From the IMG/VR virus record IMGVR_UViG_2870495154_000004, positions 1-51,251 of that record: a stretch of DNA of 51,251 nt; one strand, 5' to 3'. Position 1 is the stretch's first letter; the number at the start of each line of letters is the position of its first letter. Of this stretch, positions 1 to 49,883 are shown piece by piece. The notes under the pieces are model-generated. The model worked only from the letters and a program-made list of their open reading frames with translations, was not told the origin of the DNA and did no database searches. Source of the DNA: a virus. Lineage: Duplodnaviria; Heunggongvirae; Uroviricota; Caudoviricetes. The position numbers and the translations under genes are program-made.

Positions 1-249
1 TCATCTGATCTGTATCCAGCAGAGAAGGTCACTTAACAACCATCCGCAAGATTTCTTTCCGATAGACTTACGTGGTGGAAATGTTCCCTCCCGTTCAAGT
101 TTCCACGCTTGTGTACGAGAAATTGACGTGATCTCATATCGTTCCTTTTCACGTACCAGTCTGTCGCATTCAATCCCATAAGCTTTCAAAATGACCAGAC
201 GCTGTTCATCTGTTAATGGAAGCCACATACTACCCTCCTGATATATCAA
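1..249 (-). CDS. AlpA-like small DNA-binding regulator (phage/island transcriptional regulator family)
   Basis: 82-aa ORF; the C-terminal GWLLSDLLCWI segment resembles the AlpA/Xis-type HTH family; lies outside the prophage in AT-rich flank. Confidence 0.45.
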   Translation of the reverse strand: MIYQEGSMWLPLTDEQRLVILKAYGIECDRLVREKERYEITSISRTQAWKLEREGTFPPRKSIGKKSCGWLLSDLLCWIQIR

Positions 250-918
250 TACTTTTTATTTCCGGCATGAGCATGAAATGACTAAGTTTCCCGGATAAAC
301 AATGAGTGAAAGTCACTATCATTCATCCAGTCAACACCTTACAAATAAAATGTAATACTATGATTTTTATAGGTCAAAATACTGAATTGAAATGTCAAAA
401 TGGCTTTTAATGGAAAAAATAAAGACATATAGAACCAAATAAAAACAATCCGCGACCAATAAAAACAAAAATTAATATTAAAAATCCATTATGACGATTT
501 TTGTTGACTAAAATTAGGTTGGGATATATAAATAAATCCATGTAAAATTCAAACAAAGCATGGAGGAGTCGCAGGAAGGTGAAATATTTCCATCTAATTT
601 GTGATAATCATCACAAAAATAAGCTACAACAAGCGGAGGAAAAGACAATCTGTTGCTGAACAGACAGAAGCAGGCTACGAATGATCGGAAAATGAAGCAA
701 ATACGCTTATACAGAAGACGCAGAGGTAACTGACGGAGACAATCACAATCAGGAGAAAATTATCGTAAATAATGTATAAAATCTCAGGATATAAACAAAT
801 GTACACAAGCTATCCACGTAATCAGCGGCTGGCTCAGGATTAACGTTTCATTTCAGTGGACAAGATCGATTCTGTCTGACAGCGGACCAATATGTAGCAA
901 GCAGAAACTTCTGACATC

Positions 919-2550
919 ATGGTAACTCGGACAATGCAACAAAAGTATCAGTATGATCGTGTTTTATCCGGCGAACTCCACCCATTCCCTGGCATATACG
1001 AGGCGGTTTCCGAACAAATCCTTTTGCTCATTTTTAAAGCACGTCAACTATATCAGGATCCAGAATATCGCCCCTGGTTTGAAGAACAGCACAGAGTACT
1101 CTCTGCATTACGTGCCAATACAGAGCTCCTGAGAATCTTTAGAGAACAAAGAAGCGCTGAAGAACCAAAGCTTACTATTGAAGAGTCTACCTCCCCCCAA
1201 CCCACTCCTTCTGCTCTTACAGATGCGCTTAATGTGATGTGCCATTTATACAATGGTTTTGATGAAGGAAATATCAGTCTGAAAACTTGGGGGGCGATGC
1301 AAGAGGTACAGACAACATCAACCTTTATCAGCCCAGGAACGAGAACCTGGAAAACACCTGAACTGGCAAAGTTTGTAGGAGATGATTTATTTAATATTCT
1401 GACTGAATGTAAGGCCTGGAGTTCACCAATTCCAGCAGAAACCCGACAGGGGTATTGCCATCAGGATCTGTCTGTTGCGCACTCCTGCACCTCAGAGTTG
1501 CTGGCACACCTGAAGCAGTATCATGAAATAGATGAATCAACAATACTTGCCATAACAATTGGTCTGGCGGTTAACGAATTCTACCAGAATAAGCAAAATA
1601 TTCCAGAATGGCTTTCCTGTTTTGAGAATAAGAACAAATGGCCCTGGGACTGCAGGAAGTCAGATACTGAAGATGTGCACAGACTGAGAGAACGACTATC
1701 GATAATCGGATGTACAGAATTCGTAAAAAATATGTTTTCAGTCGCCAGTCAGCGTGAAATACAGACAATGTACAATATTTATGTCCATATTTATGCAGCT
1801 GAAATCTGTGGTTGGGTAAAAACAAGTATGGCGTATTTTAAACCAACAGATTTCATCCAGTACACATGGAAATTCGCAACAGTTACTCCGGATAAAGATG
1901 AAAAAACCGAGAATACGACCGCATGGGAAAGGGATTATTGTCAGATAACCATACAACGAGATGAACTCCTTAGATTGATTCGCACTAATACTCTGCAGGA
2001 TGCCGCAATTCATCTTTCAGGCTGCCTGCAATATGCATATCTGGAGTCAGTAAAGCATGATATTGACTATCCAGGAATAGCCCCTAATGCTGAAGAAAAG
2101 AAAATGAAACACACAGATTCTATTGAATTTTCTGGAATTCGGAATAACATCATAAATGCAGTAAAACGGCTAGAATCATTTGAAAAATGGTATGAAACTA
2201 ATAAAGTTTTGTTGGTAAGTAATAAAAAAATACGAACAGAGAAGATTGACGTTGTTGTACGACTTGCAGGACTGAAAGCCTATGATTTGCAGGAAGGGGT
2301 TCCGGAAGGTCTGAAATGGAAAGTTAAAGATGGCATAAATGAACGCATCAAAACCGATACCAGTTTATGCCTGCCTCAGGATATCAGTGATACATCGCTA
2401 AACCGTTATCGTCACGCTGTGACGCGCATTGTCAACAACGAAATCGACACATTACTGATGGAACAGAAGAAAAAAAATAAAAGATTCCCCTACAGCAAAG
2501 ATCGACATGCGATCCAACCTTTATGGAGCAAATGCTTGATCGAGCAGTAG
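919..2550 (+). CDS. hypothetical protein, 543 aa, no recognised domain
   Basis: long uninterrupted ORF preceded by about 670 bp of very AT-rich leader; no motif recognised by eye. Confidence 0.5.
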   Translation: MVTRTMQQKYQYDRVLSGELHPFPGIYEAVSEQILLLIFKARQLYQDPEYRPWFEEQHRVLSALRANTELLRIFREQRSAEEPKLTIEESTSPQPTPSALTDALNVMCHLYNGFDEGNISLKTWGAMQEVQTTSTFISPGTRTWKTPELAKFVGDDLFNILTECKAWSSPIPAETRQGYCHQDLSVAHSCTSELLAHLKQYHEIDESTILAITIGLAVNEFYQNKQNIPEWLSCFENKNKWPWDCRKSDTEDVHRLRERLSIIGCTEFVKNMFSVASQREIQTMYNIYVHIYAAEICGWVKTSMAYFKPTDFIQYTWKFATVTPDKDEKTENTTAWERDYCQITIQRDELLRLIRTNTLQDAAIHLSGCLQYAYLESVKHDIDYPGIAPNAEEKKMKHTDSIEFSGIRNNIINAVKRLESFEKWYETNKVLLVSNKKIRTEKIDVVVRLAGLKAYDLQEGVPEGLKWKVKDGINERIKTDTSLCLPQDISDTSLNRYRHAVTRIVNNEIDTLLMEQKKKNKRFPYSKDRHAIQPLWSKCLIEQ

Positions 2551-2642
2551 AGAACTGAGGGGATAACCGTTCTGTTATCCCCTGTTTATTCTGCCAACTC
2601 TCAGGTCTGTCAGAGTTCCAAGAACACGATGCGGCTGGCAAA

Positions 2643-3158
2643 TTATGCGGCTTTTCCATTAACAGATTCGGCCACAAGAACAACACCGTGTTTATTTCGA
2701 TCAGGATGTTCACTCCAGATTTCTGATACAGGAATACTTTCCCCGTCATAGCAGATCCGATCGCCATCAAACGGATAATACCGTGCGGAATCAGTATCTA
2801 AAATAAACACTTTCAGATTCGTTGAACGACGCGCTATATGCTACCAGAGGGCTTTACCTCCTTCATATTGCTCGTTATCACTTAATAGTATAACGCCCGC
2901 TTTTGTGGCTATCGTTTCATAAACAAACGTCGCAAGGCCAACATCACGTACAGCGCCATCGACAACAATCCCTTCAATCTGAGCAACGTCCTGTTCTTCC
3001 CAGAATTTCCGGACAAACACCCCTTCAAGCTGTGAACGACGCTGAAGCTCCAGAGTGGCAACAACCTTATGGCGAATATCACCATCAATAACAGAAGGTG
3101 CAGCTTCGATTACCGCAGCGAACGGAGTCTTTGGATCCCAGATGATCTGGTAAAGCAC
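2643..3158 (-). pseudogene. ORF interrupted by a single in-frame amber codon (105 aa + TAG + 66 aa in the same frame)
   Basis: 105-aa ORF ends at TAG (2841-2843); the same frame stays open for 66 more codons to a TAA at 2643-2645. Confidence 0.35.
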
Positions 3159-3531
3159 ACCCTGAATAGTTACTCCATCCAGTATCGAAAAAGACGAGCT
3201 ACAGTAGCAGGGGAGTAAGACATTGGAATGACAGCCATTTTATGGCCTAAAATTTGAAAACATTAGTATCAATACTGACCTCATCAGTCTGAGCATATAT
3301 TGATAAAGTTTTTATGTTTACACTCAATAAATACCTTGCCAAACAACTAATAGCGATGTCTACATTGCCATTCGACATGCTTACAATTTTTGTCAACAAG
3401 AAAGTCAATTTATATCAACGATAAGAAGTAAACACGAGGACACCAAAACCAAATGTACACACTTTTGTGCTTTGTGTCCCCTGTGTGTACCCAAATGACA
3501 AACTGCAAGAAAATCTAGGCACACACTTATC

Positions 3532-3594
3532 TAACTTATTGATTTAAATGGTGCCGATAATAGGAGTCGAACCTACGACCTTCGCATTACGAAT
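3532..3594. repeat. att core copy distal to int (63 bp; carries the 3' 46 nt of tRNA-Thr plus 17 bp)
   Basis: exact 63-bp direct repeat of 49791-49853; flanking sequence diverges on both sides. Confidence 0.85.
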
Positions 3595-4133
3595 TATAAG
3601 AATCCGCTTCTAATTCAAAGCATTACCCCATCAACACTGCGCTCACACGTCCCACCACATCAAAACATGTAAAGCCTTGCAAGCCATTGCGAGGCCTTAT
3701 ATGTCTCAGTTTTGTCCCACCTTGTATTACGACTTGCATAGCCAATGAAGATAAACGTAACGACAAACGGCACTGCAGTCTTCTTTTCTTTCACGACTTC
3801 CCCACACCCAGCATGCATACCTTTCTGCCACAACTGTAGTGAATGTCTGTTATGAGCGAAATATAGTCATTGACTACCGAATCTCTTTTCGCCGAAACGC
3901 GCTACTAAATAGCTAGCGCGTGCGCAATGGCACGTTAGTGCTGATATACGTCAGGAGTAAAGCGTGATGTAAATTTTTCTGATGAATTTTCAGAATGTAT
4001 CATCCGGGCTTACCGATGGCAGTGTCGTTTCGGCTCAAAAAGGTGTGAAATATAAATAGCAGCGCTGATGTTTAAATAATTATCAAGTCTGGCATGATGA
4101 GAGAGAAACTTAACTTATGCGAGGATCGCAAGT

Positions 4134-5504
4134 ATGCTGAATCTTATCGTTGTCGGAACCCCCAAATACTACACTTTTTTTTCTGAACCCAGTGGCAATG
4201 ACTCTTTCCCTGTGTCGCGACTCTTCGAATCCACGCCAGAGTCTCTTAGAAGCAGATTGCTTCCCCTGACTGAAAAAACCTATCATTTTCTTCAGGAACT
4301 GCCCGTTGTATTTATGTCCGAGCCGGAAATTGAATTCGATGAAGATAATGAAAAAATAGGTTATTTCAGCCACATCCGCTTAGGAAAAATCAGCAAGATA
4401 AGTACGTCCGTGTATAACAGAGAAAAAGTTTTAGCGTTTGATTATGAGATTACCAGTGATATCGGCTACAAGCCCTTAACCAGCGATAAAGAGTACGTAA
4501 GTGAGCTGGAGCTGGGCAGTTTCGGACTAAACAGAACGTTCTGGGCGGTCAAAGAGATTTCCGTAAATGAGATTCTGCGTGTTTTAGGCCTTGAAGGCTA
4601 TTCTAATGTTGAGCCCGCAGCAGCGAGTGCGGAAGCACCGGAGAATAATGAAGAACTAGAGATCATTGCGAATATCAATCAGTACTTGCAGGTGATACTC
4701 GATCATACACAGGGAAACGATGAAGAGGTATTTTACCGCGGTCACTCGGACATCAACTACCAACTGGAACCCTCACTGTTCCGCAAGGATACTCAGGGTA
4801 ACTATCGCTACCGCCATCACGAATCGGACATGATAACAGAGCTGCTGACCGTGCAGCCCGCCGAGTTCAAAGACGATCGGTATATGCTAGATAAACTCGT
4901 GCGCATGCAACACTATGGCCTACCCACACGCCTGCTTGATGTATCAACAAACCCCTTGATCGCACTATATTTTGCCTGCTCTAAAATCAAGCACGATGAA
5001 AATAATCATGAAATTGACGGGAACGTCATTATTCTGACGACGCCCAAAAGTGAAATTAAGTTTTTCGACTCGGATACCGTAAGTTGCATAGCCAATCTTT
5101 CCCGTCTTCCCTCTCGTTTCAAAAGCAGCCTGAAAACTAATCTCACCATTCCGGCGTTTAACGAATCTGAAGAGTGCGGACAACTACTACACCTGATCCG
5201 CGATGAAAAGTCCTATTTCAAAAGCATCATCGATCCGGTCCACCTAAGTAAAATTGTTGTGGTCAAAGGTCGGCTCAGTAACGCACGTATTTCGTCCCAA
5301 TCAGGCGCTTTCCTGCTCTTTGGTGAAAACGTAGACCTACCGGAAACGGGACTCAGTACGCTGAACATCAAAAAGCTTGTTATTAGAAACAAAGAGCATC
5401 TGATGCAGCAACTGAGCCGCCTTGGCATTAACGAAAGCACGGTGTACCCCGGCATTGAGAAGGCTGCTACGGAAATTGCAAAACTATACGATGGACGAAT
5501 CTGA
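4134..5504 (+). CDS. FRG-domain protein with an uncharacterised N-terminal domain
   Basis: 456-aa ORF; C-terminal half carries the FRG signature (VFYRGHSD...YQLEPSLFR...QHYGLPTRLLDVSTNPLIALYFAC); SD-like GAGGA upstream. Confidence 0.6.
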   Translation: MLNLIVVGTPKYYTFFSEPSGNDSFPVSRLFESTPESLRSRLLPLTEKTYHFLQELPVVFMSEPEIEFDEDNEKIGYFSHIRLGKISKISTSVYNREKVLAFDYEITSDIGYKPLTSDKEYVSELELGSFGLNRTFWAVKEISVNEILRVLGLEGYSNVEPAAASAEAPENNEELEIIANINQYLQVILDHTQGNDEEVFYRGHSDINYQLEPSLFRKDTQGNYRYRHHESDMITELLTVQPAEFKDDRYMLDKLVRMQHYGLPTRLLDVSTNPLIALYFACSKIKHDENNHEIDGNVIILTTPKSEIKFFDSDTVSCIANLSRLPSRFKSSLKTNLTIPAFNESEECGQLLHLIRDEKSYFKSIIDPVHLSKIVVVKGRLSNARISSQSGAFLLFGENVDLPETGLSTLNIKKLVIRNKEHLMQQLSRLGINESTVYPGIEKAATEIAKLYDGRI

Positions 5505-5645
5505 TAGCGCTTTAGTCGCACGGCACGCCTGTGTGCCAGCGTGGGCCCATAGCCGCTTTAATCGCCGTGCAGAATGCAGTTTTCAGGTAACTTCAGAGAA
5601 ACAAGTGATCTCATTTCGTTGTATTTATTAGCTGCGGAGTCATTA

Positions 5646-6698
5646 ATGGAAAGAATCAAGAGGAATCCCGAACGATTTGAAGCCTTTGAGCTTTTTTCCT
5701 CGTTGGGCCAGATCTATAATTACGATATTAAAAACCCCGAGCACCAGGATGACTTTATACAAAAGGTCACCACGTCATTAATCGCTTCCCATCAGAATCC
5801 AATTCTGCTGAACGGGAAAAGAATAGAAAACCTATTTAAACACGTTTGCGCCGCACTGAACCACTGCCAGTTTCTTAAACAGGAAGACGCCGGAGACTTG
5901 ATGTCAGCCGATCCCGATCTGGTGGCACCTGACTATCGCATTATACTGAAGGATCGCCGTCAGATCTTTGTGGAAGTAAAAAACTTTAACGCGGATGACG
6001 TGGCTGACGATTATCGCCTGAAGAAATCGTACAGTGATAAGGTTGAAAAGTACGGTGAGCTCCATGGTATTCCAGTTTATTATGCCATCTACATCAGGAT
6101 GCTGCGCCGGTGGGCGCTGGTTGCACGCTCCTCAATGAAGGAGCTAGAGCGTGAACATACCTTGACGCAGGCCTCGGCGCTCGCAAAAAGTGAGATGTAC
6201 CTGCTGGGCGACCTATCGATAGCAACAGAACCCGATCTGGTTTTTGAGCTTATCCCCGACCGGACCAAAGAAGTTTCAGTTAGTCCCGAAGGCATCGCCC
6301 ATTTTACAATTGGCGAGATTAAAATTTACTGCAATGACAGACAAGTAACGGATAAATTTGAAATGAACACGGCGTTTCATCTGATGCGCTACGGAGAGTG
6401 GCTCTGCCCCGGATCGGAGGCAATATTCACTGATGGTCAGCTTGAGAGCATCCGATACACATTTTCCCCGGAAGACGACGAAAATTACAAAAGACAGGGT
6501 TTCGACTTTATAGGTACGCTGAGTTCGCTGGTCACGTCGGCCTTTAACGAGCAGACTGTACACGACAGCCAGATCAGGTCAGTTGACACCCGGCAGAATG
6601 TCAGACTTTTCACGGTAACCATCCCTGATGATTACAAAGGGGGAGGCCTGCCTCTGTGGCGTTTCTCAATGCGGCCAAACTATGAATTTACCGATTAA
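5646..6698 (+). CDS. PD-(D/E)xK nuclease-fold protein (restriction-endonuclease-like) with an unknown C-terminal domain
   Basis: ORF with GGAG 6 nt upstream of ATG 5646 (track ORF opens at 5574); motif order E...PD...(14 aa)...EVK in APDYRIILKDRRQIFVEVK. Confidence 0.5.
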   Translation: MERIKRNPERFEAFELFSSLGQIYNYDIKNPEHQDDFIQKVTTSLIASHQNPILLNGKRIENLFKHVCAALNHCQFLKQEDAGDLMSADPDLVAPDYRIILKDRRQIFVEVKNFNADDVADDYRLKKSYSDKVEKYGELHGIPVYYAIYIRMLRRWALVARSSMKELEREHTLTQASALAKSEMYLLGDLSIATEPDLVFELIPDRTKEVSVSPEGIAHFTIGEIKIYCNDRQVTDKFEMNTAFHLMRYGEWLCPGSEAIFTDGQLESIRYTFSPEDDENYKRQGFDFIGTLSSLVTSAFNEQTVHDSQIRSVDTRQNVRLFTVTIPDDYKGGGLPLWRFSMRPNYEFTD

Positions 6699-7174
6699 GA
6701 GTAATAGTGAGACATTTAATCGGGATAAATCGCTCGATAATTCGTTGCTACTTCAACAACTTATAAATGAGAAGACCCAGCCTAATAACCTCACAATCAA
6801 CTTCATTGCGGATCCCCAAAGATAGACGGGCATAGGCGGCTTTTTATCACCTAAGCGTCAGCGCAACATAAATGATCGGGTCAATGGAATGACCTGTTCC
6901 CCGTTAAACAACACAGATGGTTGTTAGCCACTTCCGCACTTGGCATGACTTGTCCCACCGTTTGATACGTTACTATCTTAGTAATGTCCGCTTCTGGCAC
7001 GAAGCTATCGTAGGTTAGGCCCAAGGACAGCTTTAAGCGAGGAGCGGACGCTGAATTCGAATTCATCGTAAAAATTTTTATGGCCAAGTAGCTCTATAAG
7101 GCCTTTCATTAAAGCTATCTTTGTCGCAAAGCTTATGCAAAAAGTTACTTTATCTTTAAATCTAATAAGATAAC

Positions 7175-7990
7175 ATGATTGACGAAACCCCAAAATCAAC
7201 TTTACTTAAGCAAAAACGAGGCATGCAATTGAAAAAGATTAGGAAAATCAATAAAAAAATTATTGATGAATTGCTATCTCTTCGCGAATCAAGAGGAGCT
7301 ATAGAAGACTTCTCAATGTCTTTCCTACTAAATTTTGCAGAAAATTGTCGACTTATGCATTCACTTATTTCAACGAAAGATAAGAAAATAGATATTTATA
7401 AAACAGCATATCGACAATATTTTGTATTTCTAATCAGTTGCTGGGAAACATATTTTAGAGACGTTTTTGTTTTCGTGCATTCAGTTGATGAATCTAGAAT
7501 TACAACACTACTATCTAAAATGAGAACAGAAACATCTATCAATATAAACACTGAGATAAATCTATCAGAGTTATTGAGTAAAAGCTTTAACTTTCAAAAC
7601 TTAAACGACCTTGAAGAAGCATATAATGGCATGTGGGGTGAGAGTTTTTTAAACTACATATGTACAACTAATATATCTCCTTGCGGTCTGAGTGGCCAAA
7701 TTTCCCAAAGCTTATCGATAGAAAATATATTTCCAGACTGGAGAGCCCTCATAGAGGAAGCATTTTACATTAGGCACAAAGTGGTTCATGATGCAAACTT
7801 CAGACCTAAAGTCAACATTGAATTAATCAGTAAGGTAGAGGCTTTGTTTTTAATAATCCCACAATTTGCAACGCATATCATATCAGAAAGATTCAACTTA
7901 AAAAAAATCGTCATTTCAGATGGTAAAAATAACCATACCTATATTTTCAATATCAGTGATATATTATCTGATGATTGGGTTGTTAGTTGA
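7175..7990 (+). CDS. AT-rich hypothetical protein with HEPN-like Rx4H motif (candidate RNase / abortive-infection protein)
   Basis: 271-aa ORF in markedly AT-rich DNA; C-terminal motif YIRHKVVHD fits the HEPN Rx4-6H signature. Confidence 0.4.
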   Translation: MIDETPKSTLLKQKRGMQLKKIRKINKKIIDELLSLRESRGAIEDFSMSFLLNFAENCRLMHSLISTKDKKIDIYKTAYRQYFVFLISCWETYFRDVFVFVHSVDESRITTLLSKMRTETSININTEINLSELLSKSFNFQNLNDLEEAYNGMWGESFLNYICTTNISPCGLSGQISQSLSIENIFPDWRALIEEAFYIRHKVVHDANFRPKVNIELISKVEALFLIIPQFATHIISERFNLKKIVISDGKNNHTYIFNISDILSDDWVVS

Positions 7991-8229
7991 TGATGGGATT
8001 GTAAGTATATTAACACAAAAAACAAAGAATCTAATGAAGTCCGCTTCTGGCACATAGCAGCCATAGAGACAGTGGCGTAAAGTCATGGAGGATCGGTGGG
8101 AGGAGGTGCAAATCCTCTCATGCAAAAATATGTAAAATCGGTAGCAACTGGAAATCATTCAATACTCGCACTATCGGAAGTTCACCAGCCAACCGCAGCA
8201 CGTTCCTACATACGACGTGTCTGCGGTTT

Positions 8230-8584
8230 TCTTTTTCGCTTAGATTGTGTCTGGTTCTTTCGGCCACTCAATATCAGGTGCAGTTGATGTATCAACACGG
8301 TTCAGCAACACCCGATACTTTTTCCAGGCTTCCACCACCAGCACGACAAGATGCCGCATACAGTGACCCAGTCAGTCCAGTTTCCAGACAACCAGTGCGT
8401 CACCTTTTTGAAGGCGCTTTAAAGCGCGTTTTAATCCTGGTCGGTCTGTCTTTGTCCCGCTTAATTTATCTTCAAATATTTGTTCACATCCTGCACAAAC
8501 AAGAGCGTTTCGTTGCAGGTCTGTATTCTGGTCATTTGTTGATACCCTTACATAGCCAATCAGCACACTGAATCTCCCGTCCAA
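8230..8584 (-). pseudogene. pin: Pin/Gin-family serine DNA invertase remnant (frameshifted and truncated)
   Basis: first 70 aa ([23 protein letters not shown]...LVVWKLD) match Pin-type invertase N-terminus; premature TGA; invertase-like residues continue in another frame; C-terminal HTH missing. Confidence 0.65.
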
Positions 8585-8620
8585 AAGCGCAAATCATGCC
8601 ATGCAGGCCAGAAACGGCCA

Positions 8621-8648
8621 TTATCTAAAACCTCGGTTTACAGGAAAC
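8621..8648. other. gix/pix-like invertase crossover site (orphan)
   Basis: TTATCTAAAACCTCGGTTTACAGGAAAC resembles Gin/Pin recombination sites; lies about 55 bp upstream of the pin remnant. Confidence 0.5.
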
Positions 8649-8973
8649 GGTAAATCAGGCTTCTGGCGCATTACAGAAAAAACAGAACGGCGCAGATATT
8701 CCAGGAAAAGATACCTTCACCAAAAATATTGGTGCCTGCCGCGCATATAGCGCATGGCTGAATATTGGTGGCGATAGTCAGACCTGGACAACTGCACAAT
8801 TCATTTCGTGGCTGGAGAGTCAGGGGGCATTTAACCATCCTTATCATCCTTCCTCAAGTCGTTAATCGCGTGCGTAGCCAAACTCAATACATCAACATGT
8901 CGAAGCATGATCTGCCCTCCCATATACTGTTTTTATATACAGCGGTTGCACTTTAAAGGCAGATCAATAGCTG

Positions 8974-22532: not shown

Positions 22533-22936
22533 TTTCCCGCAGAAACAGGCTCTGCAGGCCCGGCGTCCTCTGTCTGTTCAGGGGTATTATTCACAACAAA
22601 CTCATACATACCAGACAGCCGGTACACCACGTTTTCAGCATGAGAAATTGCCTCCGTGGGCCAGGTGGTAAGCACTTCCTGCTCAATCTGTTTAACGGCT
22701 TCATTCATGGACGGCATCTGCGTCTTCTGCGGATGGTTATGCCACAGGGACATCGCCACCAGAAACGCGCCGGTTCTGATGGCGTCTTCCACAGTAAACT
22801 TCCGGTTGCTGTCTGACTCCGCCTGTTCTGCCTGCCGTTTCATCAGGGCGAGATGCTCAATACGCTGCAGGGCTGACAGTTCAGAAAGCGTGACGGTCAC
22901 ACCGTTATGTTCAAATGATTCGGTTTTCAGGAACAT
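22514..22936 (-). CDS. G: tail assembly chaperone G
   Basis: 140 aa, lambda G-like. Confidence 0.9.
   Translation of the reverse strand: MFLKTESFEHNGVTVTLSELSALQRIEHLALMKRQAEQAESDSNRKFTVEDAIRTGAFLVAMSLWHNHPQKTQMPSMNEAVKQIEQEVLTTWPTEAISHAENVVYRLSGMYEFVVNNTPEQTEDAGPAEPVSAGKCSTVS
22532..22538 (-). promoter_or_regulatory. programmed -1 ribosomal frameshift slippery heptamer G GGA AAG (G to G-T)
   Basis: minus-strand GGGAAAG, in G frame as G GGA AAG at codons G133-K134. Confidence 0.8.
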
Positions 22937-24095: not shown

Positions 24096-24670
24096 CGCTT
24101 TATTACCATTCTCAGTTGATGCTGCAGCGCATAGCCCAGCTCTTTCGGAAGACGTTCACGCCGTATCCGTTCAATATTCTGTTTAAACGCCGTGGTCAGC
24201 GGCACCGCCATCGGGATTTTCACTACATCAATGGGGTAACGGTTTTTCCCGGCCACACGCTGCATAACATGCCACCGGCCGTTTTTCAGTTGCTGAATAA
24301 ACGCGCCGGGAATACGACGGTTTCCCACCACAAGCACGCTGCCGCCACCTTTCAGGGCTGAACGCTGCCCCTTTTTACGACGCCTGCGTCGGGACAGGAC
24401 AACCCGCGCGTTACCCAGCTTGATTACGGGCAAATCCCCCCGGTTAACTTTGATTCTGGCCTGCGGATTTTTGACCGTGGCCCTTTTCAGCCTGGCCCTT
24501 TCCTTTACCAGTTTCCGGCGCACCTTTGTCTCACGGGCAACCTGTGACGCCGACTGCGATATCGCGGATGAAGCAACGCGGTTAATGGCCATTGCGGCGG
24601 CACCAGGCACCGCCGTTTTGCTGATACGGCTGAGGTTTTCAACGGCCTGCTCAAGACCTTTTATGGCCAT
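24092..24670 (-). CDS. Z: tail completion protein Z
   Basis: 192 aa, lambda Z-like. Confidence 0.9.
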   Translation of the reverse strand: MAIKGLEQAVENLSRISKTAVPGAAAMAINRVASSAISQSASQVARETKVRRKLVKERARLKRATVKNPQARIKVNRGDLPVIKLGNARVVLSRRRRRKKGQRSALKGGGSVLVVGNRRIPGAFIQQLKNGRWHVMQRVAGKNRYPIDVVKIPMAVPLTTAFKQNIERIRRERLPKELGYALQHQLRMVIKR

Positions 24671-26906: not shown

Positions 26907-28206
26907 TTACACTGGTGTGTTCAGCAAATCGTTAACGGCATCAGATGCCGGGTTACCTGCAGCCAGCGGTGCCGGTGCCCCCTGCATCAGACGATCCAGC
27001 GCAGTGTCACTGCGCGCCTGTGCACTCTGTGGTGCTGCGGCCAGAATGCGGCGGGCCGTTTCCACGGTCATACCGGGGGTTTCTGCCAGCACGCGGGCCT
27101 GTTCTTCGCGTCCGTGAGCCTCCTCACAGTTGAGGATCCCCATAATGCGGCTGTTTTCTGCCGCAACCGCAGCGGTGATCTGCGCGTTCACGTCCGGCTG
27201 CGCCGCGCTGGCGTTTTCGCCCTCCGTCGCTGGCACCACGTCAGTAACGTCAGCCTGAGAAGCAGTGGCTGAAACAGTTGTTGATTGAGTCTCTTTGGTC
27301 ATTCGCCCTCCTGAGAGACGGGATTTACGTGCATCCAGTGCATCACGCATAACGGTGATCGCATCGGTGCTGTTGACAAGTTCATCAGCCAGTCCGGCAT
27401 CAATGGCCTCCTGACCGCTGTACACTGCAGCCTCGGTATCCAGCACAGCCTGCACGGACAGGCCGGTATATGCCGACACCTTCTGCGCAAACATCCGGCG
27501 GGTTGCATCCATCCGGGACTGCAGTGTCTCCCGGACGTCATCCGGAAGATGGCTGTAGGGGTTGCCATCCACCTTATGGCTGCCGCTGTAAATCAGCGTG
27601 ATTTCCACGCCCTGTTTCTCCAGCGCAGCACCGTAATTACTGTGAGCCATCATGACGCCGATGGAGCCTGTCCGGGCGGTCTGCGTGACCAGACGCCGGG
27701 AGGCGGCGCTGGCAAGCAGCTGACCTGCACTGCAGTTCATGTCGTTGGCCAGCGCCCATACCGGTTTTATGTCTCGCACACGGGCGATGATGTCAGCACA
27801 GTCAAATGCTCCCGCCACCATCCCGCCCGGTGTGTCCATATCGAGCAGAATGCCGTCCACCATCGGATCGCTGGCAGCCTGTTGCAGACGGGCGATAATG
27901 CCGTTGTAACCGGTCATTCCCGAATACGGCTGCAGCGCCCGCGTCCGGCTGACCAGCGTACCGGACACCGGCAGCACGGCGATGCCGTTCATGACCTGAT
28001 AACTGCGGGCCTGTCGTGGTCCGTCATCATCACCGGATAACGCCAGCGCCGCGGGTGCCTCTCCGGCAGTCAGGCTGTCGCCGGACACCGCATCCGTCAG
28101 GCGACTGATCCCAAGCTGGCCTGCAAGCGCACAAAAGAAAACCCGCGCATAGGCGGGTTCAAGCATCAGCGGCTCATTAAAAGCCATGCTGGCAATATGC
28201 GGGAGA

Positions 28207-33542: not shown

Positions 33543-34033
33543 ATCATAACGTCCGGTTTCTTCCGTGCCAGAACCGGACTCGCTGGCATGATGAAATATG
33601 TGTACCCGGTAACCCCGGTGTGCATCGTTTTTGATTATTCCCGCACACTCGCGCAGAAGGAGTTCCCCGTCGGGCTACGGTCTCTGTTAATACGGGAATA
33701 CGGCGACGATACAGCGCATGATGTGTCAGGCTTGAATACCTTTATCCTTTAAAAGGGATATCAGTTAAGTTATCCCGTGTAGGGTATAAGCCATTATCAA
33801 AGCCACTCTGTAGGGAGTGGCTTTTGTAATGGCAATAAAAAGCCCCGCGAATACGAGGCTAAATCCTGGTATTTGTAATGACTGGCTCTTATTTCAACGC
33901 AGCCCCTTACCGCGCGCCAGATGCTCAACTTCAAGCATCAGCAATGAGATGTTTAATCTGGATTCACTCCAGAAGTGATCACCACCCTGTCTACAGAGCC
34001 AAATGTGAAGGATGATGAGTAAAATTATCGCTA

Positions 34034-48753: not shown

Positions 48754-49793
48754 AGGCTGAAGCATGGCGGGTCAGCAAACTTGGTGAAATACCTGATATA
48801 ACGTTCGAGGAAGCGTGTATCAGGTGGCTTGAAGAGAAAGCACATAAAAAATCACTGGACGATGACAAAAGCCGGATCGGATTCTGGCTTCAACATTTCG
48901 CAGGAATGCAACTAAGAGACATTACTGAATCAAAAATTTATTCAGCAATGCAGAAAATGACGAACCGGCGTCATGAGGAAAACTGGAAACTCAGGACAGA
49001 AGCATGCAGAAAAAAAGGGAAACCTGTTCCAGAATACACGCCAAAACCAGCGTCCGTTGCAACGAAGGCTACGCATCTTTCATTTATAAAAGCCCTACTA
49101 AGAGCCGCAGAGCGTGAATGGAAAATGCTGGATAAGGCACCAATTATTAAAGTGCCTCAACCAAAGAATAAACGGATCCGCTGGCTGGAGCCCCATGAAG
49201 CACAAAGGCTGATTGATGAATGTCCGGAGCCATTAAAGTCTGTTGTTGAATTTGCACTGGCAACAGGCTTAAGACGCTCGAACATCATCAACCTTGAATG
49301 GCAACAAATAGACATGCAGCGCCGGGTGGCATGGATAAACCCGGAAGAGAGTAAATCAAACCGCGCAATTGGCGTTGCGCTGAATGATACTGCATGTCGC
49401 GTTTTGAAAAAACAAATCGGGAATCATCACCGTTGGGTATTTGTGTACAAGGAAAGCTGTACCAAACCAGACGGAACGAAAGCGCCAACAGTAAGGAAGA
49501 TGCGGTATGACGCAAACACAGCCTGGAAAGCGGCGCTGAGACGGGCTGGTATTGATGATTTCAGATTTCACGACTTGAGACACACCTGGGCAAGTTGGCT
49601 GGTTCAAGCCGGAGTCCCGTTGTCAGTGTTACAGGAAATGGGAGGCTGGGAGTCTATCGAAATGGTTCGTCGATATGCTCACCTTGCACCTAATCACCTT
49701 ACCGAACACGCACGGCAAATAGACTCGATCCTGAACCCATCGGTCCCAAATTCGTCCCAGTCAAAAAATAAGGAAGGTACTAATGATGTGTAA
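48630..49793 (+). CDS. int: tyrosine integrase, P22 Int-like, thrW-specific
   Basis: 387 aa; arm-binding N-terminus and catalytic HDLRHTWAS...VRRYAH; stop codon is the first 3 nt of the att core. Confidence 0.9.
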
Positions 49794-49853
49794 CTTATTG
49801 ATTTAAATGGTGCCGATAATAGGAGTCGAACCTACGACCTTCGCATTACGAAT
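49791..49853. repeat. att core copy adjacent to int, overlapping the 3' 46 nt of thrW
   Basis: exact 63-bp direct repeat of 3532-3594. Confidence 0.85.
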
Positions 49854-49883
49854 GCGCTGCTCTACCAACTGAGCTATATCGGC
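49808..49883 (-). tRNA. thrW: tRNA-Thr (anticodon CGU)
   Basis: 76-nt cloverleaf ending CCA; anticodon loop TTCGTAA; next to proA. Confidence 0.9.

Follow-up and report, generated by a model that had tools for sequence, protein, structure and literature searches.

The window analysed here, the whole 51,251-nucleotide (nt) stretch of the IMG/VR virus record IMGVR_UViG_2870495154_000004 (Caudoviricetes), is an Escherichia coli lambda-like prophage, which is 100% identical to the CREC-532 prophage over the queried stretches. Between its left attachment (att) site, attL, and the tail-fibre genes it carries three accessory genes on the plus strand, coding respectively for an FRG-domain protein, a protein of 350 or 374 amino acids (aa) and a RiboL-PSP-HEPN protein. 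The last of these genes is AT-rich and lies between the two copies of a short direct repeat. The present work concerns this repeat and a pair of hairpin elements, here designated h1 and h2, that mark the limits of accessory genes in this and other temperate enterobacterial phages.

The direct repeat as a product of two tandem cassettes

The initial annotation had drawn attention to a 13-mer, CCGCTTCTGGCAC, which is indeed present in exact form at 6988-7000 and 8041-8053; the full exact repeat is 15 nt long (GTCCGCTTCTGGCAC, 6986-7000 and 8039-8053). The tetranucleotide AATG does precede both copies, adjoining the left one (TAATG followed by TCCGC) and lying 3 nt farther off at the right one (TAATGAAG followed by TCCGC), and the minus-strand readings of the copies are FVPEADI and YVPEADF, as had been stated. 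Beyond the 15-mer the two flanks have no mutual similarity (449/1000 shuffles score as well), so that a dot-plot would show a short repeat only. Homology of the left flank is likewise short, extending over about 23 nt to lambda and about 15 nt to the right flank, with nothing longer. Taken alone, the 15-mer is only moderately unusual: apart from the att repeat, 4 pairs of identical 15-mers were seen in the window against about 1.2 expected, and 2 pairs within 1.5 kb against about 0.07 expected.

These other chance pairs, and the fact that VPEAD can be read in frame at either copy on the minus strand, are what could be said for the repeat being a coincidence or, as had been proposed, a remnant of duplicated VPEAD coding fragments. 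We consider this highly improbable, and the comparative data refute it. Decisive against chance are the placement of the right copy at a recurrent mosaic breakpoint, with which the repeat coincides to the nucleotide, and the recurrence of the motif in the same orientation upstream in independent prophages. The coding reading is contradicted by the lambda copy of the motif, which has a 1-nt deletion that is frameshifting for VPEAD, and by variants that turn the E of VPEAD into G or K and the P into L; the substitutions are non-synonymous and compensate one another within a hairpin. Moreover, the flanks are dissimilar, and the repeat region is annotated as non-coding in both lambda and RefSeq.

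A second proposal, that the HEPN cassette was inserted or excised through recombination between the two direct copies, finds no support in the genomes. Excision of this kind would leave the single-copy product TAATG-TCCGCTTCTGGCAC-ATAGCAG, and no single-copy empty site was found among 5,426 E. coli genomes; the left flank (6650-7175) occurs in 27 of these and is always contiguous with the HEPN gene. It had also been anticipated that the proposal would fall if close relatives of the cassette lacked the repeats. The nearest relatives of the HEPN gene do carry no motif, but they sit in other genomic contexts. What stands is the idea of a separately acquired unit: the relatives share only 7190-8013 with the window, and the FRG and 350-aa pair exists without the HEPN gene. 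Both repeat copies are true borders of such units; in locus L009 the equivalent slot holds a different gene bracketed by h2 and h1. The cassette idea is right in spirit, and the reading of the repeat as coding fragments is wrong.

The 15-nt repeat is the 5' arm and loop of h1, a hairpin of the form TCCGCTYYTGGCAC[N]GAGCGGA. Its local layout, TCCGCT-5N-CAC-N-GAGCGGA, is perfect in three of the four loci L002, L016, L017 and L027. The second element, h2 (GTCYGCTNNGAGCGANNAGCGGA), is an inverted repeat of h1 with the hairpin layout GTCYGCT-NN-GAGCGA-NN-AGCGGA and follows h1 by about 18 nt. The two form inverted repeats of about 21 nt, whose ...AGCGGA and TCCGCT... ends face inward. The outer h2 and h1 of an array match in inverted orientation at 17 of 21 positions, and only 0-2 of 500 shuffles were as good in L027, L172 and lambda; in the window this pairing is weaker owing to the truncation of the left h2. 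Around the HEPN gene the bracketing pair is the h2 at 7026-7049 and the h1 at 8039-8053, in inverted orientation. Other arrays have a constant offset of 41 nt from h1 to h2, and the window has one of 39 nt. The tail of the left copy matches the junction unit of L027, chiefly by virtue of h2; only 5/1000 shuffles scored as well.

The window is arranged in the order left border, truncated h2, FRG and 350-aa genes, h1-h2 junction, HEPN gene, h1, and right border with a remnant of the tail-fibre-assembly gene tfa (Table 1). The direct repeat is a by-product of this tandem framing, existing because two tandem cassettes each finish with h1. A degenerate additional h1, TCCGCACTTGGCAT, was noted at 6933-6946, 53 nt ahead of the left copy and within a 130-nt stretch (6856-6985) that is missing from L009; it may be the remnant of a lost cassette.

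Table 1. Features at and around the accessory region, in window coordinates
Feature	Position	Strand	Remarks
attL	3532-3594		63-nt direct repeat of 49791-49853; the two bound the prophage
Left (att-side) border of hotspot	3690-3844		ends in ...ACTGTAGTGAAT; common to lambda (27336-27480) and 30+ viral contigs
Truncated h2, GTCTGTTATGAGCGA	3845-3859	+	5' arm and loop kept, 3' arm lost; homology to L009 begins at 3862
Cassette 1, FRG and 350/374-aa genes	3860-6985	+	3862-6855 is 92% identical to L009
FRG-domain protein gene	4134-5504	+	PADLOC candidate family PDC-S15
350/374-aa protein gene	5574/5646-6698	+	no family match
Composite junction element	6986-7049	+	h1 (left copy, 6986-7000), spacer, h2 GACAGCTTTAAGCGAGGAGCGGAC (7026-7049)
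Cassette 2, RiboL-PSP-HEPN	7050-8038	+	core common to relatives elsewhere 7190-8013
RiboL-PSP-HEPN gene	7175-7990	+	271 aa, AT-rich; homologues suggest start at M17, 7223
h1, right repeat copy	8039-8053	+	last border of the array and inner end of the right border; homology with lambda and other E. coli prophages reaches no farther than this copy
Right conserved border	8054-8345	-	non-coding 8054-8190 (equivalent to lambda 24162-24335), hairpin 8193-8226, tfa remnant
tfa C-terminal remnant	8240-8344	-	right of the HEPN gene
Truncated Pin/Gin-type invertase gene	8372-8584	-	70 aa; tail-fibre genes beyond
gix-like crossover site, TTATCTAAAACCTCGGTTTACAGGAA	8621-8646	-	intact, beside the Pin remnant; context only

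The fold of the 64-nt junction unit is a single hairpin, long and imperfect (-14.9 kcal/mol, z = -2.2), and the local hairpins reach stabilities of -14.7 and -14.9 kcal/mol. Selection acts on the pairing of the stem, as seen in compensatory changes in two copies whose retrieval did not depend on the stem, one in L161 (TCTGCT...AGCAGA) and one at window 33551-33579 (GTCCGG...CCGGAC). G:U pairing was considered as a guide to the strand that folds as RNA and was dropped, as its signals conflict among copies. Rfam yielded nothing matching h1 or h2; its only hits, partial and sub-threshold, were IS009 and CssrB and fell in the tfa remnant and the terminator of that remnant; the hairpin in the right border is the terminator stem of CssrB-like and tfa transcripts. 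The copy at 33551-33579, GTCCGGTTCTGGCACGGAAGAAACCGGAC, is a third h1-like hairpin of the window. It lies on the minus strand, with the Rz spanin gene on one side and a plus-strand DUF1398 (ydfO/ybcV-type) gene on the other, and differs by a C:G to G:C change in the stem. A mosaic border is present there as well, with blocks of E. coli homology breaking at 33580 and at about 33611.

Regarding the wider setting, the second att copy overlaps a tRNA-Thr gene (49808-49883). Beyond attL, window 1-3500 holds a separate island with a 543-aa open reading frame of no known function (919-2550), a helix-turn-helix regulator and a DUF3987 pseudogene (RefSeq annotation of CREC-532), which looks like the remnant of a P4-type satellite adjoining the prophage. 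The entire block of FRG, 350-aa and HEPN genes with its borders is also found at 98-99% identity in different carriers (L003, L004/L005 and PV340547), namely a prophage beside bioA/ybhB, a prophage with a baseplate-type tail module and an intact pinE, and the isolated phage PhiR11_1.

Framed cassettes in lambda and other prophages

Arrays were located by two anchors, a left border ending in ...ACTGTAGTGAAT followed by h2, and a right border in which h1 is followed by ATAGCAG... One or two units consisting of h2, one or more open reading frames and h1 were detected in this manner in the window, lambda, L016, L017, L021, L027, L036, L118, L161 and L172. At least nine independent lambdoid prophages, lambda among them, carry their accessory genes in this form between the att-side border and the tfa remnant, and neighbouring cassettes are joined via the h1-spacer-h2 unit. 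In lambda (L015) the framing elements are h2 at 27323-27345 and h1 at 24336-24349. Two further features of lambda were noted: the hairpin that serves as post-tfa terminator is present in two direct copies with 83% identity, one on each side of ea47 (22573-22608 and 24162-24197), and the lambda record has a misc_recomb feature at 24389^24390.

Pairwise comparisons place the changes of cargo at these elements. L027 and L118 have both borders and the second cassette in common and unrelated first cassettes, their homology ending 4 nt after h2 and restarting 4 nt before h1. L016 and L017 have the first cassette in common and diverge inside h2; L027 and L021 have only the borders in common. A single cargo end is found joined both to a tfa border of P2 type (L132) and to a junction unit of lambdoid type (L118/L151). 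Across 127 distinct h1 sites we counted 97 clusters of upstream flanks against 44 clusters of downstream flanks, a single downstream flank being joined to 25 different upstream sequences. After a unit 92% identical to the FRG and 350-aa pair, L009 carries a different 360-aa gene between h2 (3622-3644) and h1 (4903-4924). Copies of h1 within one array usually differ by 1-3 nt; the window pair is identical at 15/15. The cargo, which is mostly anti-phage and is present on either strand, includes FRG/PDC-S15, HEPN, SMODS with SLATT, and dCTP deaminase.

The right border is common to lambda (24162-24349) and to prophages in most E. coli genomes, some part of 8040-8345 being matched in 4,904 of the 5,426; no match in these genomes reaches left of 8039/8040 except in carriers of the same HEPN cassette. 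In a set of 21 viral contigs with their anchor just within this segment, TCCGCTYYTRGCAC is abutted, always at one nucleotide position, by at least 10 sequences that are unrelated, and in strain AR435 a SMODS and SLATT pair stands in place of the HEPN cargo. When these loci were scanned for the motif alone, the independent prophages L002, L016, L017 and L027 proved to have a further copy, oriented alike and located 1.0-2.5 kb upstream. On the opposite strand there was no comparable hit inside any array, the sole match (1 mismatch) being about 2.4 kb past the right border.

Five relatives of the HEPN gene, with nucleotide identities of 80-89%, share only the core at 7190-8013 and occupy five unrelated contexts in other hotspots, including the P2-like S-V region; elsewhere, then, this gene moves by itself. 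A search for loci of HEPN relatives gave no hits in genome contigs and only the same element in viral contigs, and the contexts located by protein searches contained no motif.

Several additional arrangements were encountered around these borders. An allele devoid of the hotspot is present in L020 and 17 E. coli genomes (e.g. NZ_AP021893 3686653-3686727); both hairpins are absent and the left border runs directly into the right one (...CAGCATACATA joined to GCAGTCC...), with a microhomology of 4-5 nt (CATA) at the join. In the L038-L057 series, which comprises viral contigs that are not from E. coli and represent other enterobacterial prophages, h1-spacer-h2 stands directly after a dinI-like gene, and the sequences diverge after the GAGCGA of h2 into varied cargo, that of L057 including a CBASS-like operon. 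A further hairpin conserved between cassettes, CATACTCAAAT...ATTTGAGTATG, with a stem of 14-15 bp, was found in L009 (3575-3620) and L002 (2945-3000), directly ahead of an h2-like element in two unrelated islands. The right border further contains a stretch resembling the T-arm and 3' end of a tRNA (GGTGCAAATCCTCTCATGC, window 8096-8122), and a better tRNA-3'-like fragment, GGAAGTTCAAATCCTCTCGTGCCGACCA, lies inside the AR435 cargo about 130 nt from h1 (L002 5835-5870). The stretch may be the remnant of an old att site. A tRNA-derived att site at 8096-8122 was rejected as the origin of the border: ARAGORN and Rfam call nothing there, and the mosaic border is about 45 nt off.

Relation to known border elements

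A blastn search with the junction unit matched the 'left inverted repeat' annotated in the Z-region record of P2-EC30 (AJ512676), which belongs to Nilsson, Karlsson and Haggard-Ljungquist 2004 (Z/fun locus of P2-like coliphages), and the hairpin at 92-115 of this record agrees with the window motif at 13/14 positions. The left repeat of P2-EC30 ends in GTCCGCTCTGTGCCAGAGGCGGAC, the reverse complement of h1, the right repeat begins with the reverse complement of h2, and as annotated the repeats stop exactly at the inner ends of h1 and h2. The frame lies, as in the window, just past the tail-fibre-assembly gene and around an AT-rich foreign gene with its own promoter; in P2-like contigs h1 is found about 75 nt beyond the tfa stop. 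The window differs in being a lambda-like prophage with the frame set between tfa and the att-side border, in having two tandem cassettes with a composite h1-spacer-h2, and in the tfa-side h1 being without a local 3' arm. In sequence, in their tfa-distal position abutting variable DNA and in their framing as an inverted pair, the window elements correspond to the inverted repeats of the P2-type Z locus. The feature is a lambdoid, tandem example of the border element already annotated in P2-like phages. Among the papers searched, none describes the h1/h2 hairpins for lambdoid phages. A relation of the elements to ERIC/IRU repeats was also suspected, in view of the ERIC primer sequences.

The arrangement also recalls the morons of lambdoid phages (Juhala et al. 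2000; Hendrix) and the lambda b region, which are similarly autonomous, often AT-rich genes bounded by stem-loops between conserved phage genes, and the b-region genes ea59-ea31 occupy exactly the h2/h1 frame. However, classical morons are described as unique insertions that each have their own terminator, whereas here unrelated cargos share a border sequence and form arrays. A different possibility is that the hairpins are only terminators or RNA-stabilising stem-loops kept by purifying selection, with a cargo turnover that is random and illegitimate and a border that is merely the place where selection stops. Consistent with such a role, h1 comes after the tfa stop at a distance of about 75-190 nt, read in the direction of the tail operon, and is followed by GTTTTG in P2-EC30, the stem changes are compensatory, and both border hairpins face inward. 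Yet independent terminators would not have a common sequence, and one 22-nt family stands beside genes as unrelated as the tfa of P2 and lambda, dinI and Rz/DUF1398, at the att-side border, and between unrelated cargos. Random joins, moreover, would give ragged borders, not a single nucleotide in more than 90 flank classes. On balance this explanation appears improbable.

Integron cassettes with their attC sites offer another parallel, as they too are arrays of promoter-poor or independent genes split by imperfect palindromes of about 60 nt, with breakpoints inside the palindrome. In contrast to integrons, the array is without an integron integrase, attI or R'/R'' (GTTRRRY) core, the cargo occurs in both orientations, and arrays hold only one or two cassettes. 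No integron integrase was detected in 3500-8700, where the only recombinase is the Pin remnant. It is nevertheless conceivable that h1 and h2 are the recognition sites of a dedicated, uncharacterised integron-like system of cassette exchange, common to lambda-like, P2-like and other enterobacterial temperate phages and islands, that acts on hairpin or cruciform DNA, possibly extruded hairpins, with a recombinase supplied in trans. Integration of a circular cassette, itself bearing a single composite site, at a resident site would then duplicate the core and give identical 15-mers, as the h1 copies of the window are. The borders are nucleotide-sharp in dozens of contexts, they frame the cargo as inverted repeats, and breaks occur inside the hairpins, in the h2 loop (L016 against L017) and after GAGCGA (the window and the L039-L057 series). 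The title of the 2004 paper on P2-like phages to which the P2-EC30 record belongs (Nilsson et al., Mol Biol Evol 21:1) proposes site-specific recombination. On the other hand, no recombinase accompanies the cassettes as they move, the gix site of the pin remnant close by is unrelated, the cargo lies on either strand, and no circular or single-site empty form was found; given the differences between h1 copies within other arrays, the identity in the window is no rule. We regard such a dedicated system as unlikely, though less so than the terminator-only explanation.

Other mobile systems were rejected as sources of the repeat. For a transposon or insertion sequence with a target-site duplication there is no single-copy empty site, the outer flanks are conserved while the interior varies, and HEPN relatives elsewhere have no repeats. 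A 26-bp Din-family (Pin/Gin) crossover site of the type TTATCNNAAACCNNGGTTTACAGGAA was also discarded; the true gix-like site (Table 1) has no similarity to h1 or h2, and an inverted match of the repeat to 8607-8623, beside that site, is borderline (15/17) and was judged coincidental. The region from 8372 to 8870 is a decayed tail-fibre inversion switch, with the truncated invertase gene, the gix-like site and a fibre fragment, the latter being a plus-strand piece of a variable tail-fibre C-terminus at about 8650-8870.

Comparable loci, 1-5 kb in size, situated between conserved genes and with a high turnover of anti-phage genes, are the defence hotspots that Rousset et al. (2022, PMC9122126) studied in P2-like phages and P4-like satellites; the hotspot of the window differs in being tail-fibre-proximal and that of lambdoid phages. 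The same study left the mechanism of exchange open and mentioned no hairpins or inverted repeats.

Proposed mechanism of cassette exchange and its significance

Each copy of the repeat is probably the h1 half of a conserved border element which, between the att-side border and the tfa gene of temperate enterobacterial phages, frames exchangeable accessory cassettes. We infer that cassettes would be gained, lost and swapped through recombination inside h1 and h2, and that the partners in the exchange would be co-resident phages or prophages, the simplest route being short-homology recombination with lambda Red, RecET-type enzymes or RecA. This type of exchange is favoured because no recombinase travels with the cargo and the cargo occurs in both orientations. 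By this route the cargo could spread among lambda-like, P2-like and other prophages. The local hairpins may in addition act as inward-facing terminators or insulators, shielding the cargo from transcription of the late tail operon and from the att side, a role weakly suggested by their position and stability.

A number of observations weigh against this proposal of recombination within shared borders. The two-cassette arrangement is identical in every one of the 27 E. coli genomes that contain the left flank, and no recombination event was observed. The left h2 of the window is cut off after GAGCGA, which looks like an illegitimate rather than a homologous join, and at 22-27 nt the hairpins are barely long enough for homologous exchange. 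The first entry of the HEPN cargo into the frame would not be accounted for, and the nearest relatives of its gene, examined in their protein-based contexts, are not framed by h1 and h2. As for the hairpins themselves, the lambda-type h1 of the right border does not fold alone (z = +0.9), and many h1 sites were fetched with a pattern that forces both stem arms, which biases the stem statistics of that set. Regarding termination, the T-tracts after the hairpins are short, the tails being merely (C/A)GTT or GTTTTG, and a scan for consensus terminators made no call.

Prophage and satellite hotspots are now seen as major reservoirs of anti-phage defence genes, and Rousset et al. (2022, PMC9122126) treat the way in which their cargo turns over as an open question. 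The border element first annotated in P2-like phages also frames cassettes in lambda-like prophages, in reference lambda and at other module borders. It provides a searchable marker for the limits of cassettes and a route to new candidate defence genes, as well as defined DNA sites at which recombination and termination can be tested directly. If an integron-like system were indeed at work at these sites, it would constitute a physical mechanism that shuffles anti-phage defence genes between phage hotspots.

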